From Dictyostelium discoideum (lineage: Eukaryota): 64,000 bases of DNA. Position 1 is the stretch's first letter, and each line of letters opens with the position of its first letter. The translations under genes and the position numbers were made by a program. The stretch covers positions 1,856,001-1,920,000 of the forward strand of contig CM000154.2 of the NCBI GenBank assembly GCA_000004695.1, written 5' to 3'. The notes below the pieces were generated by a model. That model worked only from the letters and a program-made list of their open reading frames with translations. It did no database searches and was not told the DNA's origin. This document shows positions 22-10,520 of the stretch, one piece after another.

Positions 22-2627
22 TTAAACAAACAAAATAATTAAAATTAAAAATAAAACAAGAGAAAATAATTGGCAAAATTTAAAATTATTAGAGTGATTA
101 TTTTCATCATTTTCGGAATGATTATTATTATTGGTATTGGTTTTATTATTACCATTTGGAATTGGAGTTGTTGATTTTGGATTTACAGAGGGAGATGGAG
201 ATTTAGAAATAAATGGAGACAAAGATGGAGATAAAGATGGAGATAAAGATGGTGATAAAGATGGAGATAAAGATGGTGATAAAGATGCAGACAAAGATGG
301 TGATGGAGAAATTGTTTCAAACGGTGTTTCAGTTTCTGGTGGACTCCATTCAAAAATTGTATCACCAACAGATTGGCCATTTATAGTTACGTTTATGAAT
401 GACTTTGGTTTATCACTTGTAATGGTATCATTTGTTACAATTAATGGTTCTAAAAAACATTCAAGTTTATTAGAATCGAAAACAACTATATCACCACAGT
501 TTCTAGAATCAATTGTAATACTGTTTAATTCATTCTCTGCAAAATTGGTTCCAGTTATTGTAACATTACCACCTTTAATTTGGTCAACTTTTGTAGTGGA
601 TAAAATAGTTGGTGGATTGTATGAAAGGGTTAATGGAGATGGGAGTTGTACATCGTCTACAATTAATATAACTAGATTATTTTTTCCACTACCTTTTGGT
701 GCCATACATTCTAATGTTGTTGGACTGGATATAGAAACAGAGTCACATGACTTTTCACCAACCATTATAGTAATTGTTGATTTACTATCAAAGAAAGAAC
801 CAACAATTGAAACACTACCGCCATCTGTATTTATAGAAGAGATTGATTTGCAAATTGGAAGAATTGAAATTTTGAAACCATTAGAATCACTAGATAAACC
901 ATCAACAACAATAATGGCATTGTTATCAAATTTAGCTGTTTCTGGAAGTGTGAATGATGCTACACCATTTTCAAGTGAATCTGCTTTAATAGCGCCATTG
1001 TTTAAAGTTAATTCCACAAGTGATGCATCAGAACCAAGGTTTCTACCCTTAATCTCTAAAATATTTTCTTTTTGGGTTGGTTCAAGTTCAAATGGTGGTT
1101 GATAACTAAAAGCAATTCTATATGGTTTATGAGTACCAAAAGTTACAACGGCAACCATTTTATTACCAGTACCAGAAGAAAGAGTACATGAAAGTTTTGA
1201 AACATCAATAATTACATCTGTACATTCAATTGGATTGGTTTTACCTGTATTTTCAATTTGAATACTTGGTTTAACACCTGATGGATTCAAATAAAATCCA
1301 GATATTTCAAATGGTCCACCTTCCGTTGGGGCAAGTGTTAATGGTTCAGTTAAAACTGGAGTTGTGGTAAAATCAAGTTTATTTGAAATATCTTTATTAT
1401 TAGAAACAACAAAACTGCCACTGAAAATTTTTGAAGGTAGGGTAAATACCAAAACATTCTGAGCATTATCATCATCAGTTGGACTAATGGTGTTTTCTTG
1501 ATTTTTTTGATCAGTGATAATAATTTTTGAAGTACCCATCGTACCAAGACTTGTTCCTTCAATTGTAAAGTTAGTACCAGTTTGCTTAATATTTAAAATT
1601 TTTGGAATACCATAGGAATATTCTAAAACATTGGAATTGGAAATATTATCAATATTAATTGAAACCTTCAATTTTTTTATTCCACCTTTTGCAGTAGAGT
1701 GTGGTAATTTACAAATAATTTCACTTGAAATTTGGCTAATAATATCACAATGATAAGATCCAATGGTAATAGAGGTTTTTGATGTATCACCTGATGCACC
1801 CTTTAAGCATTTACCAGTTATTGTTACAACACCACCAATCACTGGAACGGAATTTATTGATAAAGGTAAAGGAGTAAACTTTAGTTGAGAAAGAGATGAA
1901 GATAAACCATTCACATCAACTTTAACAGATAAGGATTGGGTTAATTTTGGTTCATAATTAAATACAATTAAATCATTATTAACTGATACAATTGATGAAG
2001 CTGTTAATACTTGACTTCCCAACTCAATCTTTATTAATCTTTTATCAGTGTAAAAATTAGAACCACTTATTTTAAATTGACCATTTGATGATGATTCAAT
2101 TTTATGGATAGACGGGGCAGCAAAATTTAATTTGAAGGTTGAAGTTCCCAATTGAACACTGAATGAACCAGATCCACCCAAGTTTTTAACATTAAATTTA
2201 GTTGCATCTTTTGGAATTGGTGGATCTAAATTTAATTTTTTGGTTTTACCACCAATAATTACATTTAAAGTTTTTACATCATACCCAAATCTCAAAAAAT
2301 TACCAGTTACCAATGATAACCCAGGTTCAGTTGATGGTGTAAATTTCAAATCTCTTGGCGGAGGTATTGGCAAACCAATCATTGGATGCTCAGTTGTTTT
2401 ATCTTTTCCATCCATATATTTCCCATTGAATGTAAGAGTTGAACCAATTAATTTTGTAAAATCTAAATCTTTTGATTTACAAATACAACCATCTTTACCC
2501 TTTCTAGTACATGTAAACAATATTTTTACAGTTGGACAACTCTTATCTGTCAATATAATATTTGTTAAGAATTTATCAACTTTACTTCCAACATATACTA
2601 ATTTCTTTCCTTCAACAGAAACATTAA
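22..2627 (-). CDS. IPT/TIG-repeat cell-surface glycoprotein (Tgr/tiger-like), exon 2 of 2. Ends with a (SPSLSP)n stalk and a hydrophobic C-terminal tail (GPI/TM-like).
   Basis: Long minus ORF with several TIG-like repeats (GxxxTITGxxLxG...SxExxCxLP). Acceptor ...attattag|TT maps at 2628-2629, phase 1. It is a paralogue of the ORF at 3437-5925 (aligned: VSVEGKKLVYVGSKVDKF vs LSVKGKKLIYTGANVDFK). The ORF-track 'M' at 2553 is a TTG. Confidence 0.75.
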
Positions 2628-2775: not shown

Positions 2776-3436
2776 TTTATTAATTAAAAAAAAAAAAAAA
2801 AAAAAATTAAATTCTATAAATATAAAAATTTTCATGTACACCAATTTTTTTTTTTTAAAAATTAATAAAGTAATATTAAATAAAATAAAATAAAATTTAA
2901 TAAAATAAAATATTTGATAGATTTAAGGATTGGTTTAAAAAAATACTTGGTAGAAATTAAAGACGAATTGTCCGTTTATTATTTGATATCTTTCTATTGC
3001 CATTTTCAATTTATCATATTAAATTTTAAAATATAAACAAATTCTGCATTTTTCTGAAAAATAATATGTTTACCTCATCTTTTATTCATTTATTATTGTC
3101 AAAAAAAAAAAAAAAAAATAAAAAAAAATAAAAAAAAAAAACTACCACTAACCACTAATTAAAGAAATATTTTTTTTCATAATCTTAATTAAGATTATAT
3201 GAGTTTTTATTTATTTACATCTTTATATAATATTTTATAATATCATTTTATATATATATATTTTATTATTATCATTATCATTATTATTATTTTTATTATT
3301 ATTATTATTTTTTTTTTTTATTTTTTTTTTTATTTTTTATTTTTTTATTATTATTATCTTTATTATTATTGTTAGATTTTTTTTTTATTTTTTTTTTTTT
3401 TTTTATTTTTTTTTTTATTTTTTTTTTTGGTTATTT

Positions 3437-5925
3437 TTAAATTATTTGGATTAGTAATAATAATGAGAAAATTAAAATTAATGAATTAGAAATTTTAGAA
3501 GAACTATTTTCAATGTGTTTATCTATTGGAGATGTTGTTGGTTTTTCAGTTGGTTTTTCAGTTGGTTTTTCAGTTGGTTTTATAGTTGGTGCTAATGTTG
3601 GTTTAGGAGTTTCAGTATTGAGTGCTTCATTATCATATTCAAATACTTCACCATTAGCAGATTGACCATTTACAGTAACATTTACGGCCAATTTCTTATT
3701 TGTTAATGAAGGATCTATTGTTGATTTTGAAATTGAACAAGTAAGTTTGGTTGAATCTATTACAGAAACATCTTCACATGATTTACTTCCAACATTTACT
3801 GTAATCAAAGTATTTTCAAAATTGGTACCATAAATAGTAACTTGACCACCTTCAACTTGTTTTACACTTGTTGATGACATAATGGTTGGTGGACTATAAT
3901 CTAAAAACAATGGTGGTGATAATTTTGATTCAGCATCTTTAACCATGAATGAAACAGCATTTTTAATACCACTTCCTGGTGGAGCAGAGCAAGTAAGTGT
4001 TTGGGTATCTACAATAGTCAAAGAATCACATGAATGATTTCCAACCATAATTTTCAAACCAGTGTCCTTTTTATTAAAGAATGAACCTTTAATTGTCACA
4101 GTTGATCCAGAGGTTTGTGATTGAGTAATTGATTTGACAACTGGTTGAAGCTCGACATCAAGTTGGTCAGAGTCTGAGTTTTTAATACCATCAACTGAAA
4201 TGGTGGCATATGAATCACTCAATAATGTACTTGGCAAATCGAATGAAACAGTACCATTTTCAAGAGAGGAAGCTAACAGTTCGTTTCCGTTCATGTCTAA
4301 CTTTATATATTTTGAATTTGGACCAAGGTTTTTGCCACTAATTTGTAATTTATTATCAGACATTTGTTTTGCGACTAAAGAACTTGGGGATTGGTAGTTA
4401 AAATCTAGTGGAATTGAGTTTTCACCAATAACAATTGTAGATTTAATTGAACCACATCCTGGTGCAAGTTTACAAGTAGCAGATGATGAATCTGGACTAA
4501 TTAAGAAATCTGAACAATCAACACTTTGATTTCTTGCATCCAAAAGGGAAATAGTTGCTTTTGCTTTTGAATCAAGATAACCACCGATGAAATTAATTTC
4601 TTGACCATCTGTTGATGGGAGAGCTTTTAAATTAGAAATAAATGGTGTTGGTGTGACATCAAAATTATTTGAAGTATCTTGACCATCATAGACTGTAACT
4701 GCACTCTTTGATGAGTTTGTTGGTAAGTTAAATGTTAAATAAGATTCCTTTTCATCATCAAAACCTACAACAGAAAGGTCAAATGGGGTTGGAGAGCCAC
4801 CTGTTGCAACACGAATAACTGAATCGGTTTTACCCAAGTTTGAACCGGTAATAGTGAATAAAGATGCTCCTGGTTTTTGGTCAATTTTGGTAATTTGTGG
4901 TATTCCATAAGAGTATAATAATTGATTGGTATTTTTAATACCATCTATAGTAATAACAACTTTTAGATCCTTTGAACCATTCTCTTTTGAAGCAGGTGGT
5001 AATTGACACATTATTTCTGTTGATATTTGAGCACCAACAACAGCACATGTGTATGCACCTACTAAAACAGATGTAACAGATGGACCAGATCCTTTTAAGC
5101 ATTTACCAGAGATAGTGATTAGACCACCAGTTCCTTTAGAAACAGATTTATCAATTGCTTGAGGATATGAAGGGATTGTAACATAATAAGCAGCAGTTTG
5201 GGAATTACCACCGACAGTAATAAGTAACGATGAGTTTGAAGAATATTTTGAATCATAGTCAATTAAAATTTTTGATGTATCACTTGAAGTAATTGAAGCA
5301 CTAAGATCATCCTCACCCAATTTTACACTGATAACCTTTTTATCGATCCAAAAGTTTTGACCACTGATTGAAATTTGATTATTTGTAATTGCCACTGCGG
5401 AAACAACTGGTCTAGAAAAGTTTACCGGAAAACTCATAGAACCAAATGTAACTTTCATTGAACCATAACCACCTGGACTTTTAACCATTATTTTGGTTGC
5501 GTCAGTATTTGATGAAACACCCAATGACACTGGTTTTGAATTGTAAACACCAGGAAGAGTTGTAACATCTTCACCAAATAATAAGAAATCTCCAGTCATA
5601 AGAGCAGCTGTACCAGCCATTGTTGGTGGTTCCCATTTAACCTCAGTTGGTAATGGTAGTGGAATTTGATTGGCTTTAATATCATAGGCAATTACTATAT
5701 TTGGGGTTTTTAAATTTGCTCCCCTTAGAGTTAATTTTCCAGCTAATTTTGTAAAGTCCATATCCATACTCGTACAAACAGGGCTATTGGCAGATGGAAT
5801 TTCACAAGTGAATGTAATTGAGTAATCTGGTAATATTTTTTGGGAAGTTAACAAAATTTCAGTAATTTTGAAATCTACATTGGCACCAGTATATATTAAC
5901 TTTTTTCCTTTAACAGATAAAGTAT
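3437..5925 (-). CDS. IPT/TIG-repeat cell-surface glycoprotein (Tgr/tiger-like paralogue), exon 2 of 2. Has a (PTEK)n stalk and a hydrophobic C-terminal tail.
   Basis: Minus ORF with classic TIG repeats (e.g. GGLITISGKCLKG...YTCAVV...STEIMCQLPP). The open frame extends upstream of the TTG shown as 'M' at 5854, to acceptor aaaaaaag|AT at 5926-5927. Confidence 0.75.
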
Positions 5926-6080
5926 CTTTTTTTAAATGTTTAAAAAATATATTAAAAAAAAAAAAAAAAAAATTATTAGTAATCTATTTTTAATCTATTT
6001 TTTTTTTTTTTTTTTATTATTATATTTAAATTTTTTTATTTATTTTATTTTTTAATATTATTTTTTGATTTAAAACTTAC

Positions 6081-6153
6081 AACCAGCATCAACAATATTA
6101 AATATTGTTAGTGATAGAATAAAAAATAAAAATAAAATTTTATTTATTAACAT
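6081..6153 (-). CDS. Exon 1 (signal peptide MLINKILFLFFILSLTIFNIVDAG) of the IPT/TIG glycoprotein gene at 3437-5925.
   Basis: ATG at 6153, a hydrophobic leader, then donor GTAAGT at 6080-6075 (phase 1). It joins the acceptor at 5926-5927 and gives ...DAG|Y|TLSVKGKK, parallel to its paralogue. Confidence 0.6.
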
Positions 6154-6302
6154 TTTTTTAAATTAAAAAAATATATATTAGTAAAAGTAATATATATATT
6201 ATATATTATATATTATTAATTTTAATAAAATGAAAAATATATAATGAAATTATAATATAATAACTTTTTTTTTATTCTTTTTTTTTTTTTTTTATTTTTT
6301 TT

Positions 6303-6333
<31 letters not shown>

Positions 6334-7380
6334 TTATTATTATTATTTTTATTTATTTTTTTATTTATTTTTATTTTTATTTTAATAAAATTGAAAATAA
6401 TTATTATTCTAACTGCTATAAATGATTTTGTATTATTTTTTATATGAACTGAGGATTCAAAAAACCCATTAAACACACAGCATACAAACTCTATCAAACA
6501 GCATGCATTTACACCCACTTTCAAACAAATACAAATATATTTTTTTACCACAAAAAAAAAAAAACACATTATATTAATCTAGATTTATATGGTATTCAAA
6601 AACAACATTATTTTTTTTTTCTATTTTAGGAATCTATCTTAATGTTGTCAAATTTTTTAATTGAATATTGTTCTATTTTTGTCTCCAAAAAAAAAAAAAT
6701 AAAAAAAATAAAATAAAAAAAAAAAAAACAACACAAAACATGATTACTTTACTTTTTTTTTTTTTTTTTCTCCAAACACTACAAATCAAAAAAAAAAAAA
6801 AAAATAAATAAAAATAAAAAAAAATTAAAAATACTTGAAAATAACACATACCAAAAAAAGACATTGAAAAAAAAAAATTATGTGTGGAGAGAGCGTTAAA
6901 ATAATTAAAATATTGATTATTTGAATAACTGACCACCACACTCACCACCACACCATTGGTTAATATTAAAAAAAAAAAATTCTCCATTGTTTGGATAAAA
7001 AAAAACAACCGCCAAATTAATTTTTTGAAATTAAGTAAAAGTAAATAAAAACATAAAAAAGAGATAATTACCAAAAATTAATTTTATCTGAACATTTCTA
7101 TTATTTAATTAATATTTAGCACCCAAACCAATTTAAAAATTTTAATTAATAATTAAATATTTGAAAAATTTGTTATTTTATTTAAAATTTTAAAAAGAAT
7201 TGTAATTTTTAAAATAATTTTAAAATTAATTATTTAATTAATTATTATTTTAATTTTTTGATTATAATAAATATTCTCCAACCAATAATTAAATATTATT
7301 TAAATAATTTTTTAAATGATAATTAATAGTAATAAAAAAAAAATTCAGATTCCCTATAAATCTTTTTTTTTAATAATTTA

Positions 7381-7410
7381 AGTTCATTGGACTTAAATTT
7401 ACTATGTTTG
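7381..7410 (+). promoter_or_regulatory. Conserved motif (GGACTT)AAATTTACTATGTTTG, about 210 bp upstream of the ATG at 7605. It recurs at 8701-8730 (222 bp upstream of the ATG at 8937) and at 56681-56705 (230 bp upstream of the ATG at 56921).
   Basis: Exact 14-mer ATTTACTATGTTTG seen 3 times, always on the + strand and at a near-constant distance from a + strand start codon. Confidence 0.35.
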
Positions 7411-7604
7411 AAAAAAATGATGACGGTGTACCCCCAAAGATAAAAATAAAAATAAATATTTATTTTTATTTTTATATTTTTATTTTTAATTTTTTTTTTA
7501 TTTATTTTATTACTATAATTATTATAATTATTATTATTATTATTATTATAAATTAATTATTATTACTATTATTAATTATATAGTAAATATTATTCTTTGG
7601 AAAA

Positions 7605-7994
7605 ATGGGTGTAGGTGATAATGAAAATCCAATTGTTAGTTTTAAGTTTATTGTAACATCATTATTAACAAAATTAATTGGTAGATACTTTAAAGAATTT
7701 GGTTATACTGAATTTATTTACTATTCAATTTTTTTTTTTGGTCAAAAGATAAAATATTTTCAAAGGGATCCCGATGAAAAACCATCAATTTTAAAGATGA
7801 TACTTCCACTAATCTTTATGATTTTAAATGTGATTTTTGCAGTTTATTATTTCAATGAAGATTGTAAAGAAATTATTTCAAAAAATAATGACCCCAATTT
7901 ATTTATTGGATTAATATTACTTAAATATTTATTTCATAATAATAATATTACACATGTTATGATTCATATTACTGATATTTATTTAAATGCTATT
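7605..7994 (+). CDS. Small multi-pass membrane protein, copy 1, exon 1 (hydrophobic segments).
   Basis: ORF MGVGDNENPIVSF... ends at codon ...NAI followed by GTAAAT (phase 0). The paralogue at 8937 has GTAAGT at the same position. Confidence 0.6.
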
Positions 7995-8117
7995 GTAAAT
8001 ATAATATAATTTTTTTTTTTTCAAAAAAAAAAAAAAAAAAAAAAAAACACAAAAACACAAAAAAACAAAAACACAAAAACAAAAAAACTTATAATTCTTT
8101 ATTATTTAATTATTTAG

Positions 8118-8336
8118 AAATTTATTGAAATTATAAAACTAATGATAAAAGAAATAATACTAAATTATTATGCAAAAATGAATAAACAATTAACAAAAAA
8201 ACCATTTGAAAATTTAGATGGTGCTGGTGGAGATGATAGTGGTGAAGATGACTATTTTGAAGAAATAATGTGTGTAAACAAAGGTGAAAAAGAAGAATAT
8301 TATGAAAGTAGAAAATTAAAACAAAAAATAAATTAA
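8118..8336 (+). CDS. Small membrane protein, copy 1, exon 2 (acidic tail ...DGAGGDDSGEDDYFEEIMCVNKGEKEEYYESRKLKQKIN).
   Basis: Acceptor tatttag at 8116-8117, phase 0, in frame with exon 1. The exon is nearly identical to 9402-9623 at the protein level. Confidence 0.55.
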   Translation, partial: KFIEIIKLMIKEIILNYYAKMNKQLTKKPFENLDGAGGDDSGEDDYFEEIMCVNKGEKEEYYESRKLKQKIN

Positions 8337-8936
8337 TAAACTTTTTAAAAAAAAAAAATTTTAAAAATTAAACTATCCATAAATTCAAAAAAAAAAACTC
8401 TCGATTGTTTGAATAATAAAAAAAAAAACAGCCGCCAATTTAAATGTTTGCCATTAAGTAAAAAGTAAAAAATTAATTATTATTTGATAATAAATATTGT
8501 TTAAACTATTATTATTTTTTTTTTAAAATGAAAAAAAATATCATATATTAAAATGTAAATAGCCCAAGTTGGCCCATTTTTTGTAAAAGATATTTTTAAA
8601 TGGGAATTCATAAAAAAATAATTTAATAATTTTTAAATTTAAAAAAGTGCGCAAACTCGGACGATTTGTAATAAAATCTTTTTTTTTAAAAAATTTAAGT
8701 TCATTGGACTTAAATTTACTATGTTTGAAAATAAATTATGACCGTGTAATACCAAAAAAATTAAAATATAAAAATAAAATTTTATTTTTATATTTTAATT
8801 TTTTTTTTTTTTTTTTTTTTTTTTTGTAATTATTTTAATTATTTTTGTTATTACTATTATAATTATTATTATTATTTTAAATTTATTATTATAAATTTAT
8901 TATTAAATTATTAATTAAATATTATTTTTTTGAAAA

Positions 8937-9326
8937 ATGGTTCTAGGGGATAATGAAAACACAATTGTTAGTTCCAAGCTAATTTTAACAACATTGACAA
9001 CAAAATTAATTAGTAGATACTTTAAGAAAGAATTTAAATTTAGTTATTTTATTTACTGTTTAGTTTATATTATTGGTAAAAATATAAAATTTTTTAGAAG
9101 GGATCCAGATAAAAAACCATCAATTTTAAAGATGAATTTTCTACTATTGTTTGTCTTTTCAAATGTGCTCTCTGGGGTTTATTATTTGTATCAAGATTGT
9201 AATGAAATTTTTTCAAAAAACAATGACCCTGATTTATATTTAATTGGATTGATATTACTTATTTTTCAAGATGATAGTTTTCCACATGTTTTTATTCATA
9301 TTACTGATCTTTATTTAAATATTACT
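8937..9326 (+). CDS. Small multi-pass membrane protein, copy 2, exon 1.
   Basis: ORF MVLGDNENTIVSSKLILTT... is paralogous to 7605-7994. Donor ...NIT|GTAAGT. Confidence 0.6.
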
Positions 9327-9401
9327 GTAAGTATAATATAAAAAAAAAAAAAAAAAAAAAAAAAAACACAAAAACTAATAATTCTTTATTATTATATTTA
9401 G

Positions 9402-9623
9402 AAATTTATTGAAATTAGAAAACAAAGAAAAAAAGAAAAAAAATTAAATAAAAAGGCAGAGATGCACAAAAAATTACAAAAAAAACCATTTGAAAAAGAT
9501 TTGGACGGTGCTGGTGGAGATGATAGTGGTGAAGATGACTATTTTGAAGAAATAATGTGTGTAAATAAAGGTGAAAAAGAAGAATATTATGAAAGTAGAA
9601 AATTAAAACAAAAAAAAAATTAA
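9402..9623 (+). CDS. Small membrane protein, copy 2, exon 2 (acidic tail).
   Basis: Acceptor ttag at 9400-9401. Reads KFIEIRKQRKK...KKPFEKDLDGAGGDDSGEDDYFEEIMCVNKGEKEEYYESRKLKQKKN*. Confidence 0.55.
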   Translation, partial: KFIEIRKQRKKEKKLNKKAEMHKKLQKKPFEKDLDGAGGDDSGEDDYFEEIMCVNKGEKEEYYESRKLKQKKN

Positions 9624-9757
9624 TAAACTTTTTAAAAAAAAAAAGAAAAAATATATTAAAAAATTAAATTGTCGGTCAATTAAATAAAAAATTCTAAAGG
9701 GAATCTATTTTAATTTTCAAAAAAAAAAAAAAAAAAAAAATATTATAAAAATGATTT

Positions 9758-9794
<37 letters not shown>

Positions 9795-9899
9795 CAAACC
9801 GTCATATAAATAGATTTTTAATTTTAATTTTTTTTTTTTTTTGATTAGTTTGTTTTTTTTTTTTTTTCTTTTGGAAAATATTAAAAAAAAAGATAAAAA

Positions 9900-10424
9900 A
9901 TGCCATTACATATTGTTGATAAACATAAAAGTTTATATGATAACTATGTTCAATCAGCAACAACCGAAGAGATAGCAAAATTTAAACTTGCTGATGATCC
10001 AAATGAACCAGAAACAATTAAAAAACTAATAATGGATGAATTATTATTGGATGGTAATTCTAAACAAAATTTAGCAACATTTTGTCAAACTGATCTCGAC
10101 AAAAACATTCATTCAATTATGGATAAATGTATAGATAAGAATATGATCGATAAGGATGAATATCCACAAAGTGCTGAAATTGAAAATCGTTGCCTTCATA
10201 TTTTAGCAGATTTATGGAATGCTCCAGATAGCTCAGACACTATTGGTTGTTCAACAACTGGTTCAAGTGAAGCTGCAATGTTAGGAGGTTTAGCATTAAA
10301 ATGGAATTGGAGAGAAAATAGAAAAAAACTTGGTTTACCTTATGATAAACCAAATATTGTTACTGGTCCAGTTCAAATTTGTTGGCATAAATTTGCTTTA
10401 TATTTTGATATTGAAATTAGAGAA
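9900..10424 (+). CDS. gad: Glutamate decarboxylase (PLP-dependent, group II), exon 1.
   Basis: Strong similarity to bacterial GadA/GadB (..[50 protein letters not shown]). Donor GTAATT after ...IRE at 10425. Confidence 0.85.
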
Positions 10425-10520
10425 GTAATTATTAATAATTATTTAATTTAATATTTAATATATTTAAAAACTCATATTAATATATATATATTTTATTTTT
10501 TATCTTATTTTTTTAAAAAG

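Follow-up and report, generated by a model that had tools for sequence, protein, structure and literature searches.

A probable tandem duplication of a two-exon gene cassette within a divergence island next to gadB in Dictyostelium discoideum

Gene structure at the locus

The window considered here is a stretch of 64,000 nucleotides from Dictyostelium discoideum, to which all coordinates refer. In strain AX4, a cassette adjoining gadB carries two genes, each encoding a protein of about 200 aa in two exons:

7605-7994, + strand: exon 1 of gene 1 (DDB_G0288713); 130 codons, hydrophobic N-terminal domain
7995-8117, + strand: intron of gene 1, 123 nt, GTAAAT...TTTAG, phase 0; the spliced protein equals the annotated 202-aa product
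8118-8336, + strand: exon 2 of gene 1; amphipathic/basic linker, acidic motif DGAGGDDSGEDDYFEEI and C-terminal KQKIN
8937-9326, + strand: exon 1 of gene 2 (DDB_G0288737); 130 codons
9327-9401, + strand: intron of gene 2, 75 nt, GTAAGT...TTTAG, phase 0
9402-9623, + strand: exon 2 of gene 2; basic linker, acidic motif and C-terminal KQKKN

The spliced products of 202 and 203 aa match DDB_G0288713 (UniProt Q54IJ5, 202 aa) and DDB_G0288737 (Q54IJ4, 203 aa, 'Transmembrane protein') with 100% identity and coverage. The genes in the window are the hypothetical proteins already annotated under these identifiers, and nothing differs from the annotation. A literature search for the identifiers DDB_G0288713 and DDB_G0288737 returned no paper naming either of them.

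Both the splice and the transcription start are predictions, the former based on the reference annotation together with comparative evidence. The phase-0 GTAAAT/GTAAGT introns described in an earlier note on this DNA are present in both genes, and all ten copies read from four species retain the phase-0 GTAA(A/G)T intron after codon 130-134, the acceptor AG and an open exon 2 frame. Alternatively, splicing might not occur at all, in which case the in-frame TAA would close hydrophobic ORFs of 134 aa, with the acidic exon being either a separate small ORF or untranslated. Such a TAA is indeed located four codons past the donor in both window genes, and the exon 2 methionine M151, invariant in all copies, could start a peptide of ~52 aa. 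However, the reference annotation uses the splice, donor, acceptor and phase-0 continuity are kept in 10/10 copies, and the intron lengths of 75-133 nt in the five copies measured include one that is not a multiple of three. Moreover, exon 2 starts with residues (KF.EI or KI..I) that lie upstream of M151 and are conserved as protein. Absence of splicing is considered very improbable.

Tandem units and duplication edges

The head-to-tail duplication of a two-exon gene proposed earlier was recovered at the position noted, both in the repeat families and in the unit alignment, with the spliced products corresponding to the annotated proteins. Within the repeat, start-to-start distances range from 1284 to 1423 nt, varying by block, and unit lengths were set from the duplication edges:

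6958-6983, + strand: 5' edge direct repeat, GGTTAATATT-A12-TTCT, just outside unit 1; matches 9674-9695 and 8379-8401
6984-8401, + strand: tandem unit 1, 1418 nt; upstream region, gene 1 and 3' flank (pairwise unit alignment, repeat families D6-D16)
8379-8401, + strand: duplication junction, ATAAATTC-A11-CTCT; aligns to both edge repeats
8402-9695, + strand: tandem unit 2, 1294 nt; shortened upstream region, gene 2 and 3' flank (alignment)
9674-9695, + strand: 3' edge direct repeat, GGTCAATTAAAT-A6-TTCT; matches the other edge copies and was mistaken earlier for a third unit

The cassette is bounded by A-rich direct repeats of 22-26 nt, with a hybrid copy at the junction. Adjacent copies in the same orientation, flanking direct repeats and a hybrid junction, as expected of a tandem segmental duplication, are thus found together. 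Since an A-rich direct repeat bounds the duplication, unequal crossover is suggested, and the cassette may have been duplicated by this route or by microhomology-mediated repair between the edge repeats. DDB_G0288713 and DDB_G0288737 are best explained as paralogs that originated when a cassette of 1.3-1.4 kb was duplicated locally in tandem, an explanation which, together with the fate of tail and membrane domain described below, is regarded as likely on the whole. The truncated third unit postulated previously has to be abandoned, as the sequence 3' of gene 2 consists of the duplicated 3' flank and the edge repeat. The 18-mer GGAATCTAT occurs at 6629 and 9700 with 2 mismatches (0.03 expected by chance) and was not found at the start of unit 2. 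Sequences related to it were seen by eye on both sides of the single gene in one-copy species. A sigma-70 promoter/terminator scan was set aside as inapplicable to a eukaryote.

Between the two copies, the acidic tail and the start of the 3' UTR (8209-8357 vs. 9496-9644) are 97% identical over 149 nt, in agreement with the near-identity of the tail reported before. The proximal upstream block (7363-7417 vs. 8680-8734) is 95% identical over 55 nt and contains a fully identical stretch of 37 nt (8695-8731 in unit 2), and the distal blocks (6965-7068 vs. 8383-8491) are 74-86% identical. Exon 1 and intron each display 81% nucleotide identity. On the protein level, identity amounts to 81% for exon 2 and to 59% (76/128) for exon 1, for which only about 50% had been estimated. 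Probes of 37 and 54 nt gave two matches each in the 64 kb window, with 0.00 expected in shuffled sequence.

Distribution and synteny of the family

The family is confined to D. discoideum, D. cf. discoideum, D. citrinum and D. dimigraforme. An HMM search of 1.84 billion representative proteins found no relative outside this four-species clade, and the eight family proteins found gave profile E-values of 1e-57 to 1e-104. The only match outside the family, a 1357-aa repeat protein, was rejected, its resemblance being at motif level (acidic motif in six repeats). In the window and in six other genomes, the cassette is invariably flanked by a Tgr (TIG-domain) gene on one side and gadB on the other, and the gene is single-copy in D. 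citrinum and D. dimigraforme.

Upstream blocks

Two groups of conserved non-coding blocks precede each gene:

6985-7045, + strand: distal upstream blocks of unit 1, CCATTGTTTGG, CAACCGCCAAAT and ATTAAGTAAAAGTAAA; 74-86% identical to 8403-8468
8403-8468, + strand: distal upstream blocks of unit 2, CGATTGTTTGAAT, CAGCCGCCAATTT and ATTAAGTAAAAAGTAAA (unit alignment, repeat families)
7375-7447, + strand: proximal upstream block of gene 1, inverted repeat AATTTAAGT-N7-ACTTAAATT and core TGATGACGGTGTACCCCCAAAGATAAAAAT; 37 nt identical to 8695-8731
8692-8767, + strand: proximal upstream block of gene 2, 3' core partly decayed (TATGACCGTGTAATACCAAAAAAATTAAAAT)

Selection on cis-regulatory elements had been suggested for the upstream blocks in general, and this idea is supported for the proximal block, the 3' half of which is kept in D. 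citrinum and D. dimigraforme, but not for the distal ones. CCATTGTT and the GCCAA(A/T)T core of the distal blocks recur in other species. Both distal blocks are missing from the spacer upstream of copy 2 in D. discoideum strain S2 and, by eye, upstream of copy 2 in strain S3, and they thus appear dispensable for copy 2. As the 3' half of the proximal block is conserved in all four species, this part is under selection, and the block is a probable promoter or leader element kept by selection. Two D. citrinum haplotypes agree in it at 100% over ~80 nt, whereas their exon 1 differs by ~20%. Most intergenic DNA around this ~75-nt element (core TGATGAC..ACCC..CAAAGATAAAAAT) aligns poorly across species, and the element is of interest as a candidate regulatory element that is kept across species and directly testable.

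A conserved upstream ORF peptide, MTVYPQR*, is seen in the discoideum clade and D. dimigraforme. It was rejected as the conserved entity, because the reading frame is shifted by a 4-nt indel in D. citrinum although the DNA motif is retained there; for the same reason, the proximal block is taken as a DNA- or RNA-level element. The upstream blocks could, in principle, also be small non-coding RNA genes or structured RNA instead of promoter or leader elements, since a perfect 9-bp inverted repeat (AATTTAAGT-N7-ACTTAAATT) is present in both window copies and conservation of the blocks exceeds that of the coding sequence. Several results render this extremely improbable. An Rfam scan of 5500-10500 at permissive E found no relative for the locus, with no match to the upstream blocks at E up to 5 and only two chance-level matches elsewhere (E = 1.1 and 2). 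RNAalifold gives no consensus pair for nine copies of the proximal block, and inverted repeats are abundant in AT-rich DNA here (1586 pairs in 4 kb). The peptide MTVYPQR likewise is not kept in D. citrinum. A structured RNA at the proximal block was rejected, as the inverted repeat is specific to the discoideum clade, its left arm being missing in D. citrinum and D. dimigraforme, and displays no covariation.

Predicted protein architecture

The hydrophobic N-terminal part and the acidic tail described for these genes earlier are both evident in the spliced translations. Exon 1 encodes a hydrophobic domain of ~130 aa with one strong predicted transmembrane helix and two or three weaker ones, and exon 2 encodes a basic juxtamembrane helix followed by the acidic motif DLDGAGGD-x(2-4)-D-x-[YF]-EE-[IV], whose DLDGAGGD...EE[IV] is invariant in the ten copies read. 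Because a basic juxtamembrane stretch precedes it, the tail is predicted by the positive-inside rule to be cytosolic. The membrane domain may be a weakly constrained anchor, with the tail as the functional part binding conserved cytosolic machinery. An AlphaFold2 model built with an 8-sequence alignment is poor (mean pLDDT 52, pTM 0.24) and unreliable for topology. A Pfam scan gave no match above threshold and a PDB profile search none at E up to 1. Acyl_transf_3 (PF01757) was rejected, its score of 13.3 bits (E = 0.043, one copy only) falling short of the cut-off of 31, and an EF-hand reading of DLDGAGGDDSGE was dropped for want of Pfam support and because key loop positions misfit.

C-terminal dilysine signals (KKXX/KXKXX) on membrane proteins bind COPI and mediate ER retrieval. 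An extended tail ending in K-x-K-x-x or K-K-x-x is limited to the discoideum clade, where 7/7 copies have K at -3 plus K at -4 or -5 although the residues vary (window: KQKIN and KQKKN; other strains: KQKTN and KKKMD). This ending, located after a basic juxtamembrane stretch as in dilysine ER-retrieval proteins, suggests COPI-dependent ER/Golgi retrieval, but it could also arise by chance in a lysine-rich tail. Unlike dilysine-tagged proteins, the copies of D. citrinum and D. dimigraforme lack the motif, and the family has no sequence kinship to known tagged families.

A divergence island centered on the cassette

Orthologous copies of exon 1 differ by 9-10% between D. discoideum strains and by ~19-20% between two D. 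citrinum strains or haplotypes, the latter value being reached likewise by the AX4 paralogs (19%), compared with about 1-3% for neighboring genes between the same strains. Between AX4 and S2, divergence per 200 nt is 12-14.5% in the cassette vs. 0.5-2.5% in gadB and beyond, and two D. citrinum strains show a peak of 20.7% on the cassette vs. 1-3% outside. In each of two independent species pairs, the cassette thus forms a divergence island with sharp limits. The earlier reading had missed that the coding divergence belongs to a cassette-wide island with an exon 1 dN/dS of ~1.

Values of dN/dS for exon 1 are close to 1 (1.05-1.4 in close pairs, which offer few synonymous sites), and for exon 2, seven of nine pairs give 0.4-0.5. 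The dN of exon 1 is 5-16x that of the neighboring Tgr gene; dS and intron divergence of the cassette are raised, too, and the adjoining Tgr gene also has raised dS (0.07-0.15). The tail is kept by purifying selection, as given by the exon 2 ratio, and by gene conversion between the copies. Exon 1, in turn, would drift at dN/dS ~1 inside the island. As this ratio and the raised dS fit more than one cause, the membrane domain is at most a putative weakly constrained anchor.

One such cause could be balancing or diversifying selection. The cassette would then be a polymorphic locus for recognition or conflict, perhaps acting together with the fast-evolving Tgr gene beside it, and the N-terminal membrane domain would be its variable specificity part. 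Consistent with this are the sharp divergence peaks in both species pairs, the high dN and dN/dS of exon 1, and the raised dS and intron divergence, which are expected of old haplotypes. Furthermore, the reading frame and ~20 invariant residues are kept across species and the gene is therefore not dead, and the Tgr family, to which the neighboring gene belongs, is described as rapidly diversifying in a preprint (bioRxiv 10.1101/2025.08.01.668227). On the other hand, dN/dS is not clearly above 1, 37-65% of replacements exchange one hydrophobic residue for another, fitting relaxed constraint on a membrane anchor, the comparison covers two or three haplotypes per species only, and some lineages have lost copy 1 or carry it in broken form. 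Balancing selection is therefore judged unlikely.

Another explanation applies to the 'alleles' of single-copy species, which might be pseudo-alleles derived from an older tandem pair, with strains keeping different copies or chimeras after unequal crossover. In D. citrinum, the diverged segment begins directly behind CCATTGTT and tapers off near ATATTCT, edges that coincide with those of the D. discoideum duplication unit and are ~1.3-1.5 kb apart, and its haplotypes differ in exon 1 as much as the AX4 paralogs do. In addition, deletion can turn a two-copy into a one-copy state, as D. cf. discoideum shows, and an N-terminal dimorphism (MG.GDNEN vs. MVL.(D/E)NEN) is found in more than one species. 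Pseudo-allelism is nevertheless rather doubtful, as the D. citrinum copies cluster together, apart from D. discoideum copy 1 or 2, and as the 9-10% divergence of clear orthologs between AX4 and S2/S3, which have both copies, is left unexplained. An assignment of the D. citrinum haplotypes as trans-specific orthologs of copies 1 and 2 is unsupported by the neighbor-joining tree and by window-wise distances.

Gene conversion and fate of copy 1

Concerted evolution, which had been proposed as well, is documented for the tail. In strain S3, the tail of copy 2 begins with the state of copy 1, a 3-nt deletion and two substitutions, which constitutes a conversion tract. In AX4, a derived GGT is common to the two copies at a site that reads GAT or AAT in every other copy. 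AX4 and S3 have an intact copy 1, and in the S2 assembly this copy contains frameshifts from -1 and -2 indels and a stop, of which the frameshifts may be assembly errors. In D. cf. discoideum, copy-1-type and copy-2-type promoter blocks lie 117 nt apart before a single gene, which points to deletion of the upstream copy. Upstream deletions at this locus differ between strains. Altogether, the locus offers a clean small case of duplicate evolution, comprising birth at short direct repeats, a conversion tract and copy decay or deletion.

Comparison with known systems

The wtf drivers of fission yeast are rapidly evolving tandem genes for multi-pass membrane proteins shaped by gene conversion. 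As a lead only, the cassette resembles them in encoding small multi-helix membrane proteins in tandem, with gene conversion, very fast protein evolution and restriction to one lineage, but it has no sequence similarity to wtf.

Rapid diversification of the Tgr family, the tgrAHIO clade among it, is reported in bioRxiv 10.1101/2025.08.01.668227, the sections consulted of which do not mention DDB_G0288713 or DDB_G0288737. The cassette is similar to the tgrB1/tgrC1 allorecognition locus and the diversifying Tgr families in its local duplication, loss, recombination and gene conversion and in a very high between-strain divergence confined to a small region; it also directly adjoins a Tgr gene. As in a hypervariable locus, the divergence peak is restricted to the cassette and lies well above the flanks. 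In contrast to tgrB1/tgrC1, the cassette proteins are only ~200 aa long, without Ig/TIG domains or a large extracellular part, and they are encoded in a different chromosome region.

The duplication itself is of little weight, as both genes were already annotated and tandem duplicates of lineage-specific genes are common. The divergence island, with an uncharacterized 200-aa membrane protein next to a Tgr gene and a strictly conserved motif predicted to be cytosolic, may merit attention. In a bolder interpretation, which is a long shot when taken as a whole, the cassette could be a small polymorphic module, linked to the neighboring Tgr gene, that acts in self/non-self discrimination or genetic conflict. 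The hypervariable membrane domain would then confer specificity and the invariant acidic cytosolic motif would couple it to conserved machinery, with repeated duplication, conversion and loss generating new alleles, and the invariant Met151 might allow a short soluble acidic isoform.

Gene models and genomic context

Both small genes are already annotated and their duplication is ordinary. What goes beyond the earlier note, whose interpretation was largely right except for a third unit, is a divergence island spanning the whole cassette (upstream blocks, gene and 3' flank) and adjoining a Tgr gene, a conversion tract in the conserved tail, and a proximal upstream element conserved across species; at the level of sequence, these would add slightly to the interest of the locus. 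The window is very AT-rich (13-33% G+C per 2 kb), with long homopolymer runs and short GT-AG introns. Two minus-strand Tgr-type genes are followed by the two small genes and by glutamate decarboxylase (gadB; Pyridoxal_deC domain), which begins at 9900.

22-2553, minus strand: Tgr-type (TIG-domain) gene, ORF reading
3437-5854, minus strand: Tgr-type (TIG-domain) gene, ORF reading, gene span 3132-6150
6958-6983: 5' edge direct repeat, GGTTAATATT-A12-TTCT
6984-8401: unit 1
7605-7994 and 8118-8336, plus strand: exons of gene 1 (DDB_G0288713), 123-nt phase-0 intron GTAAAT...TTTAG
8379-8401: duplication junction, ATAAATTC-A11-CTCT
8402-9695: unit 2
8937-9326 and 9402-9623, plus strand: exons of gene 2 (DDB_G0288737), 75-nt phase-0 intron GTAAGT...TTTAG
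9674-9695: 3' edge direct repeat, GGTCAATTAAAT-A6-TTCT

Once spliced, the two genes encode 202 and 203 aa, and along their entire length these proteins show 100% identity to DDB_G0288713 and DDB_G0288737 (UniProt Q54IJ5 and Q54IJ4) of D. discoideum AX4; together with the neighbouring gadB, this identifies the window as AX4 DNA. Splice models were also checked by comparison of ten copies read from four species, all ten of which retain donor, acceptor AG and phase-0 continuity, supporting the proposed phase-0 GTAAAT/GTAAGT intron between the two exons. Intron lengths were 75, 105, 114, 123 and 133 nt in the five copies measured, and the initial residues of exon 2 are conserved at the protein level among the copies compared. 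Exons contain 21-23% G+C versus 9-15% in introns and flanks. That the 130-codon frame of exon 1 stays open despite 35-43% nucleotide divergence in AT-rich DNA is strong evidence that it is coding. A CA-containing, A-rich repeat, (CACAAAAA)n, at 8040-8090 is longer in the intron of gene 1 than in that of gene 2, and its expansion explains most of the length gap (123 vs 75 nt). Some annotated models at related loci in the newer assemblies are artefacts: the D. cf. discoideum protein (189 aa, L002 6505-6723) has a wrong C-terminus, the genomic reading restoring the conserved tail, and in strain S3 (L006 6305-8781) copy 2 and gadB are merged into one 658-aa model.

Extent and edges of the tandem duplication

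A repeat search returned two-copy families spaced 1284-1423 nt apart across the region, and a gapped alignment of 6940-8400 with 8340-9720 stays collinear all the way between the distal upstream blocks and a point about 40 nt beyond the stop codons, which bears out the head-to-tail repeat of a two-exon gene. Between the copies, identity amounts to 97% over 149 nt comprising the final 117 coding nt and the start of the 3' UTR, 95% over 55 nt of the promoter-proximal block (37 nt identical), 74-86% in the distal blocks, 81% each in exon 1 (nucleotide level) and the intron, and 77% in the first half of exon 2 (nucleotide level). At the protein level, exon 1 is 59% and exon 2 81% identical, the earlier figure of about 50% for exon 1 thus being slightly low. 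As to further occurrences of the upstream blocks, probes for the proximal block and for the tail each match exactly twice within the 64 kb, with none expected from shuffled sequence.

Since the junction aligns to both edge repeats, the units can be delimited as 6984-8401 and 8402-9695. Most simply, the edge repeats would have given rise to the duplication through unequal crossover or microhomology-mediated repair. The sequence after gene 2, formerly taken for a truncated third unit, is the ancestral 3' flank with the edge repeat at 9674-9695. An 18-mer, GGAATCTATCTTAATGTT, at 6629 recurs at 9700 with two mismatches (0.03 expected) and is missing from the start of unit 2; it appears to be older than this duplication and to lie outside it, because related sequences, identified by eye, flank the single gene on both sides in D. 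cf. discoideum, D. citrinum and D. dimigraforme.

Family distribution and history of the copies

When a word-indexed search was followed by a full HMM scan across 1.84 billion representatives, relatives came up in D. discoideum, D. cf. discoideum, D. citrinum (two strains) and D. dimigraforme only. Further family members, which the earlier note proposed to look for, are thus found only within the D. discoideum species group, in synteny at the Tgr-gadB position, all loci having the order Tgr gene, small gene(s), gadB, choline-transporter-like gene and Sec1. Two copies are present in AX4 and in two further D. discoideum strains, S2 (L001) and S3 (L006), and one in D. cf. discoideum, D. citrinum and D. 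dimigraforme. Pfam gave no family above threshold, and zero relatives were found among PDB sequences. The sole match outside the family, a 1357-aa repeat protein (P0008) with six copies of NLDGG(D/N)GDPSGEG(Y/E)Y, matches the tail motif DLDGAGGDDSGEDDY at E = 4e-8; it shares the acidic motif alone, a motif-level resemblance rather than homology. Nanopore and Illumina reads for ten isolates of these species were produced by Holland et al. (bioRxiv 10.1101/2025.08.01.668227), who place some Tgr clades among the fastest-diversifying families; judging from the species set, the assemblies compared here appear to derive from that study.

By exon 1 sequence, copy 1 of AX4 clusters with copy 1 of S2 and S3, and AX4 copy 2 with their copy 2; hence, the duplication is older than the divergence among these strains. 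The single D. cf. discoideum gene lies closer to copy 2 and is preceded by two proximal blocks 117 nt apart, the first of copy-1 type with a shared TATA-like context and the second of copy-2 type (GAAAATAAAT), which is best read as loss of copy 1 by a deletion of about 1.2 kb. Exon 1 of S2 copy 1 (L001 4591-4977) has a -1-nt and a -2-nt indel separated by 57 nt; the resulting out-of-frame stretch contains a stop codon, and the copy is either genuinely a pseudogene or misassembled. S3 copy 1 (P0010; L006 5001-5718) is intact. The NCBI model of S2 copy 1 (158 aa) bypasses the frameshifted stretch by an artificial intron. The spacer upstream of copy 2 also varies by strain: in AX4 it keeps the junction and two distal blocks and has no equivalent of about 7046-7170, and in S2 and S3 it is without junction and distal blocks and retains, by eye, sequence resembling 7140-7215. 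Residues 1-8 are dimorphic, MG[VL]GDNEN versus MVL[GC][DE]NEN (window 7605-7628 and 8937-8960; L004 and L005, the D. citrinum loci, from 6001), which sets the two D. discoideum paralogs apart from each other and likewise the two D. citrinum haplotypes. Elsewhere in exon 1 the copies group according to species; the dimorphism could stem from conversion, parallel change or trans-specific retention.

A divergence island spanning the cassette

Between AX4 and S2, gadB and everything downstream differ mostly by 0.5-3% (5-9% in a few non-coding 200-nt windows), the Tgr gene by 4-6%, intergenic 6332-6931 by 1-3%, and the cassette by 5-22%, with 200-nt peaks of 12.1% and 14.5% in the second half of each exon 1. 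For the pair of D. citrinum strains, the background is 1-3% and the exon 1 window reaches 20.7%; the edges of the raised segment (about L004 5400-6900) nearly coincide with those of the D. discoideum unit.

Synonymous and non-synonymous divergence within species
AX4 vs S2, exon 1 of copy 2: dN 0.11, dS 0.10, dN/dS 1.1
AX4 vs S2, gadB: dS 0.02-0.07
AX4 vs S2, choline-transporter-like gene: dS 0.024-0.029
AX4 vs S2, Tgr gene: dS 0.12, dN/dS 0.21
D. citrinum A vs B, exon 1: dN 0.22, dS 0.21, dN/dS 1.05
D. citrinum A vs B, gadB and Tgr gene: dS 0.02-0.09

Exon 1 shows no net protein-level constraint; hydrophobic-for-hydrophobic swaps make up 37-65% of replacements, and relaxed constraint on the membrane anchor is the simplest reading. 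Introns and 3' flanks within the cassette are 9-13% diverged between AX4 and S2, which, together with the raised dS, indicates that the entire cassette, beyond the protein alone, is unusually diverged. Between AX4 and other discoideum-clade strains, the Tgr gene (3132-6150, minus strand) has a dS of 0.12-0.15 versus 0.02-0.07 for gadB and the choline-transporter-like gene; therefore, the raised divergence starts upstream of the small genes and stops short of gadB. It may reflect old balanced haplotypes, a local recombination or conversion hotspot, or differential retention of old paralogs.

Conserved tail and protein features

Of the nine pairs compared, seven gave an exon 2 dN/dS of 0.4-0.5, the exceptions being AX4 copy 2 versus S2 copy 2 (1.76, from only 11 differing codons) and versus D. 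dimigraforme (0.69). The motif L-D-G-A-(G)-G-D ... D-x-[YF]-E-E-[IV] varies little or not at all among the species. Gene conversion between the copies is visible in the tail: S3 copy 2 matches AX4 copy 2 exactly as far as CCATTTGAAA and then has the copy-1 state for at most about 90 nt (a 3-nt deletion, TTA for TTG, GAT for GAC), and a derived GGT (Gly) is common to both AX4 copies at a codon that reads GAT or AAT in all the others. The concerted evolution proposed earlier is supported by these two observations, and given the exon 2 constraint and the invariant motif, selection and concerted evolution both apply.

A strong hydrophobic segment (residues about 61-84) and weaker ones (about 13-28, 35-49 and 98-111) are followed by a long helix, extremely basic in copy 2, and then by the acidic motif; discoideum-clade proteins continue into an extension that ends in KQKIN, KQKKN, KQKTN or KKKMD. 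Invariant residues are D87, E90 and the HxxxH pair H117/H121. Given the basic loop 52-65 and the basic linker past the last hydrophobic segment, the tail would be cytosolic; the dilysine-type end would then act as a putative COPI retrieval signal, and the invariant acidic motif would dock a conserved partner in the cytosol. All of these assignments are weak, given an AlphaFold model of low reliability (pLDDT 52) and the lack of the dilysine end outside the discoideum clade.

Conserved upstream blocks

Alignment of the proximal block in nine copies from four species gave a core common to all four: (G/A)ACTTAA(A/T)TTT, about 15-20 nt, (A/G)TGA(C/T), ACC(C) and CAAAGAT(A/G)AAAAT, located 137-319 nt 5' of the start codon. 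There is good evidence that it is a non-coding element under purifying selection, because the two D. citrinum haplotypes are identical over about 80 nt here despite differing by about 20% in exon 1. A 9-bp inverted repeat occurs in the discoideum clade only. The nine aligned copies gave no consensus RNA structure, Rfam returned zero family matches for the block, and a short upstream ORF peptide was rejected as not conserved, its frame shifting in D. citrinum; from conservation combined with these negative results, the block is read as a putative promoter or leader element. Its spacing to the start codon is not critical, because an expanded (ATT)n microsatellite of about 150 nt lies between block and ATG in the S2 copy 2 leader (L001 5800-5950), giving 319 nt versus 137-199 nt in the other copies. 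The distal blocks contain CCATTGTT and a CCAAT-like GCCAA(A/T)T core, both of which are met with again in other species, 5' of the only copy or of the first one. Upstream of copy 2 the blocks are dispensable, because they are missing there in S2 and S3. The suggested cis-regulatory selection thus holds for the proximal block, kept across four species, and is not supported for the distal blocks upstream of copy 2.

Three G+C-richer islands (6410-6545, 6576-6609 and 6915-6962), with zero Rfam matches, lie between the Tgr gene and unit 1 and may be shared or Tgr promoter elements. Their counterparts in D. citrinum (L004 about 4895-5110 and 5350-5395) and D. dimigraforme (L003 about 4870-5060 and 5335-5370) are, by eye, conserved far above the small-gene exon 1 (35-43% different). 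A 34-nt element of these islands, AATCTAGATTTATATGGTATTCAAAAACAACATT, is inverted in D. dimigraforme.
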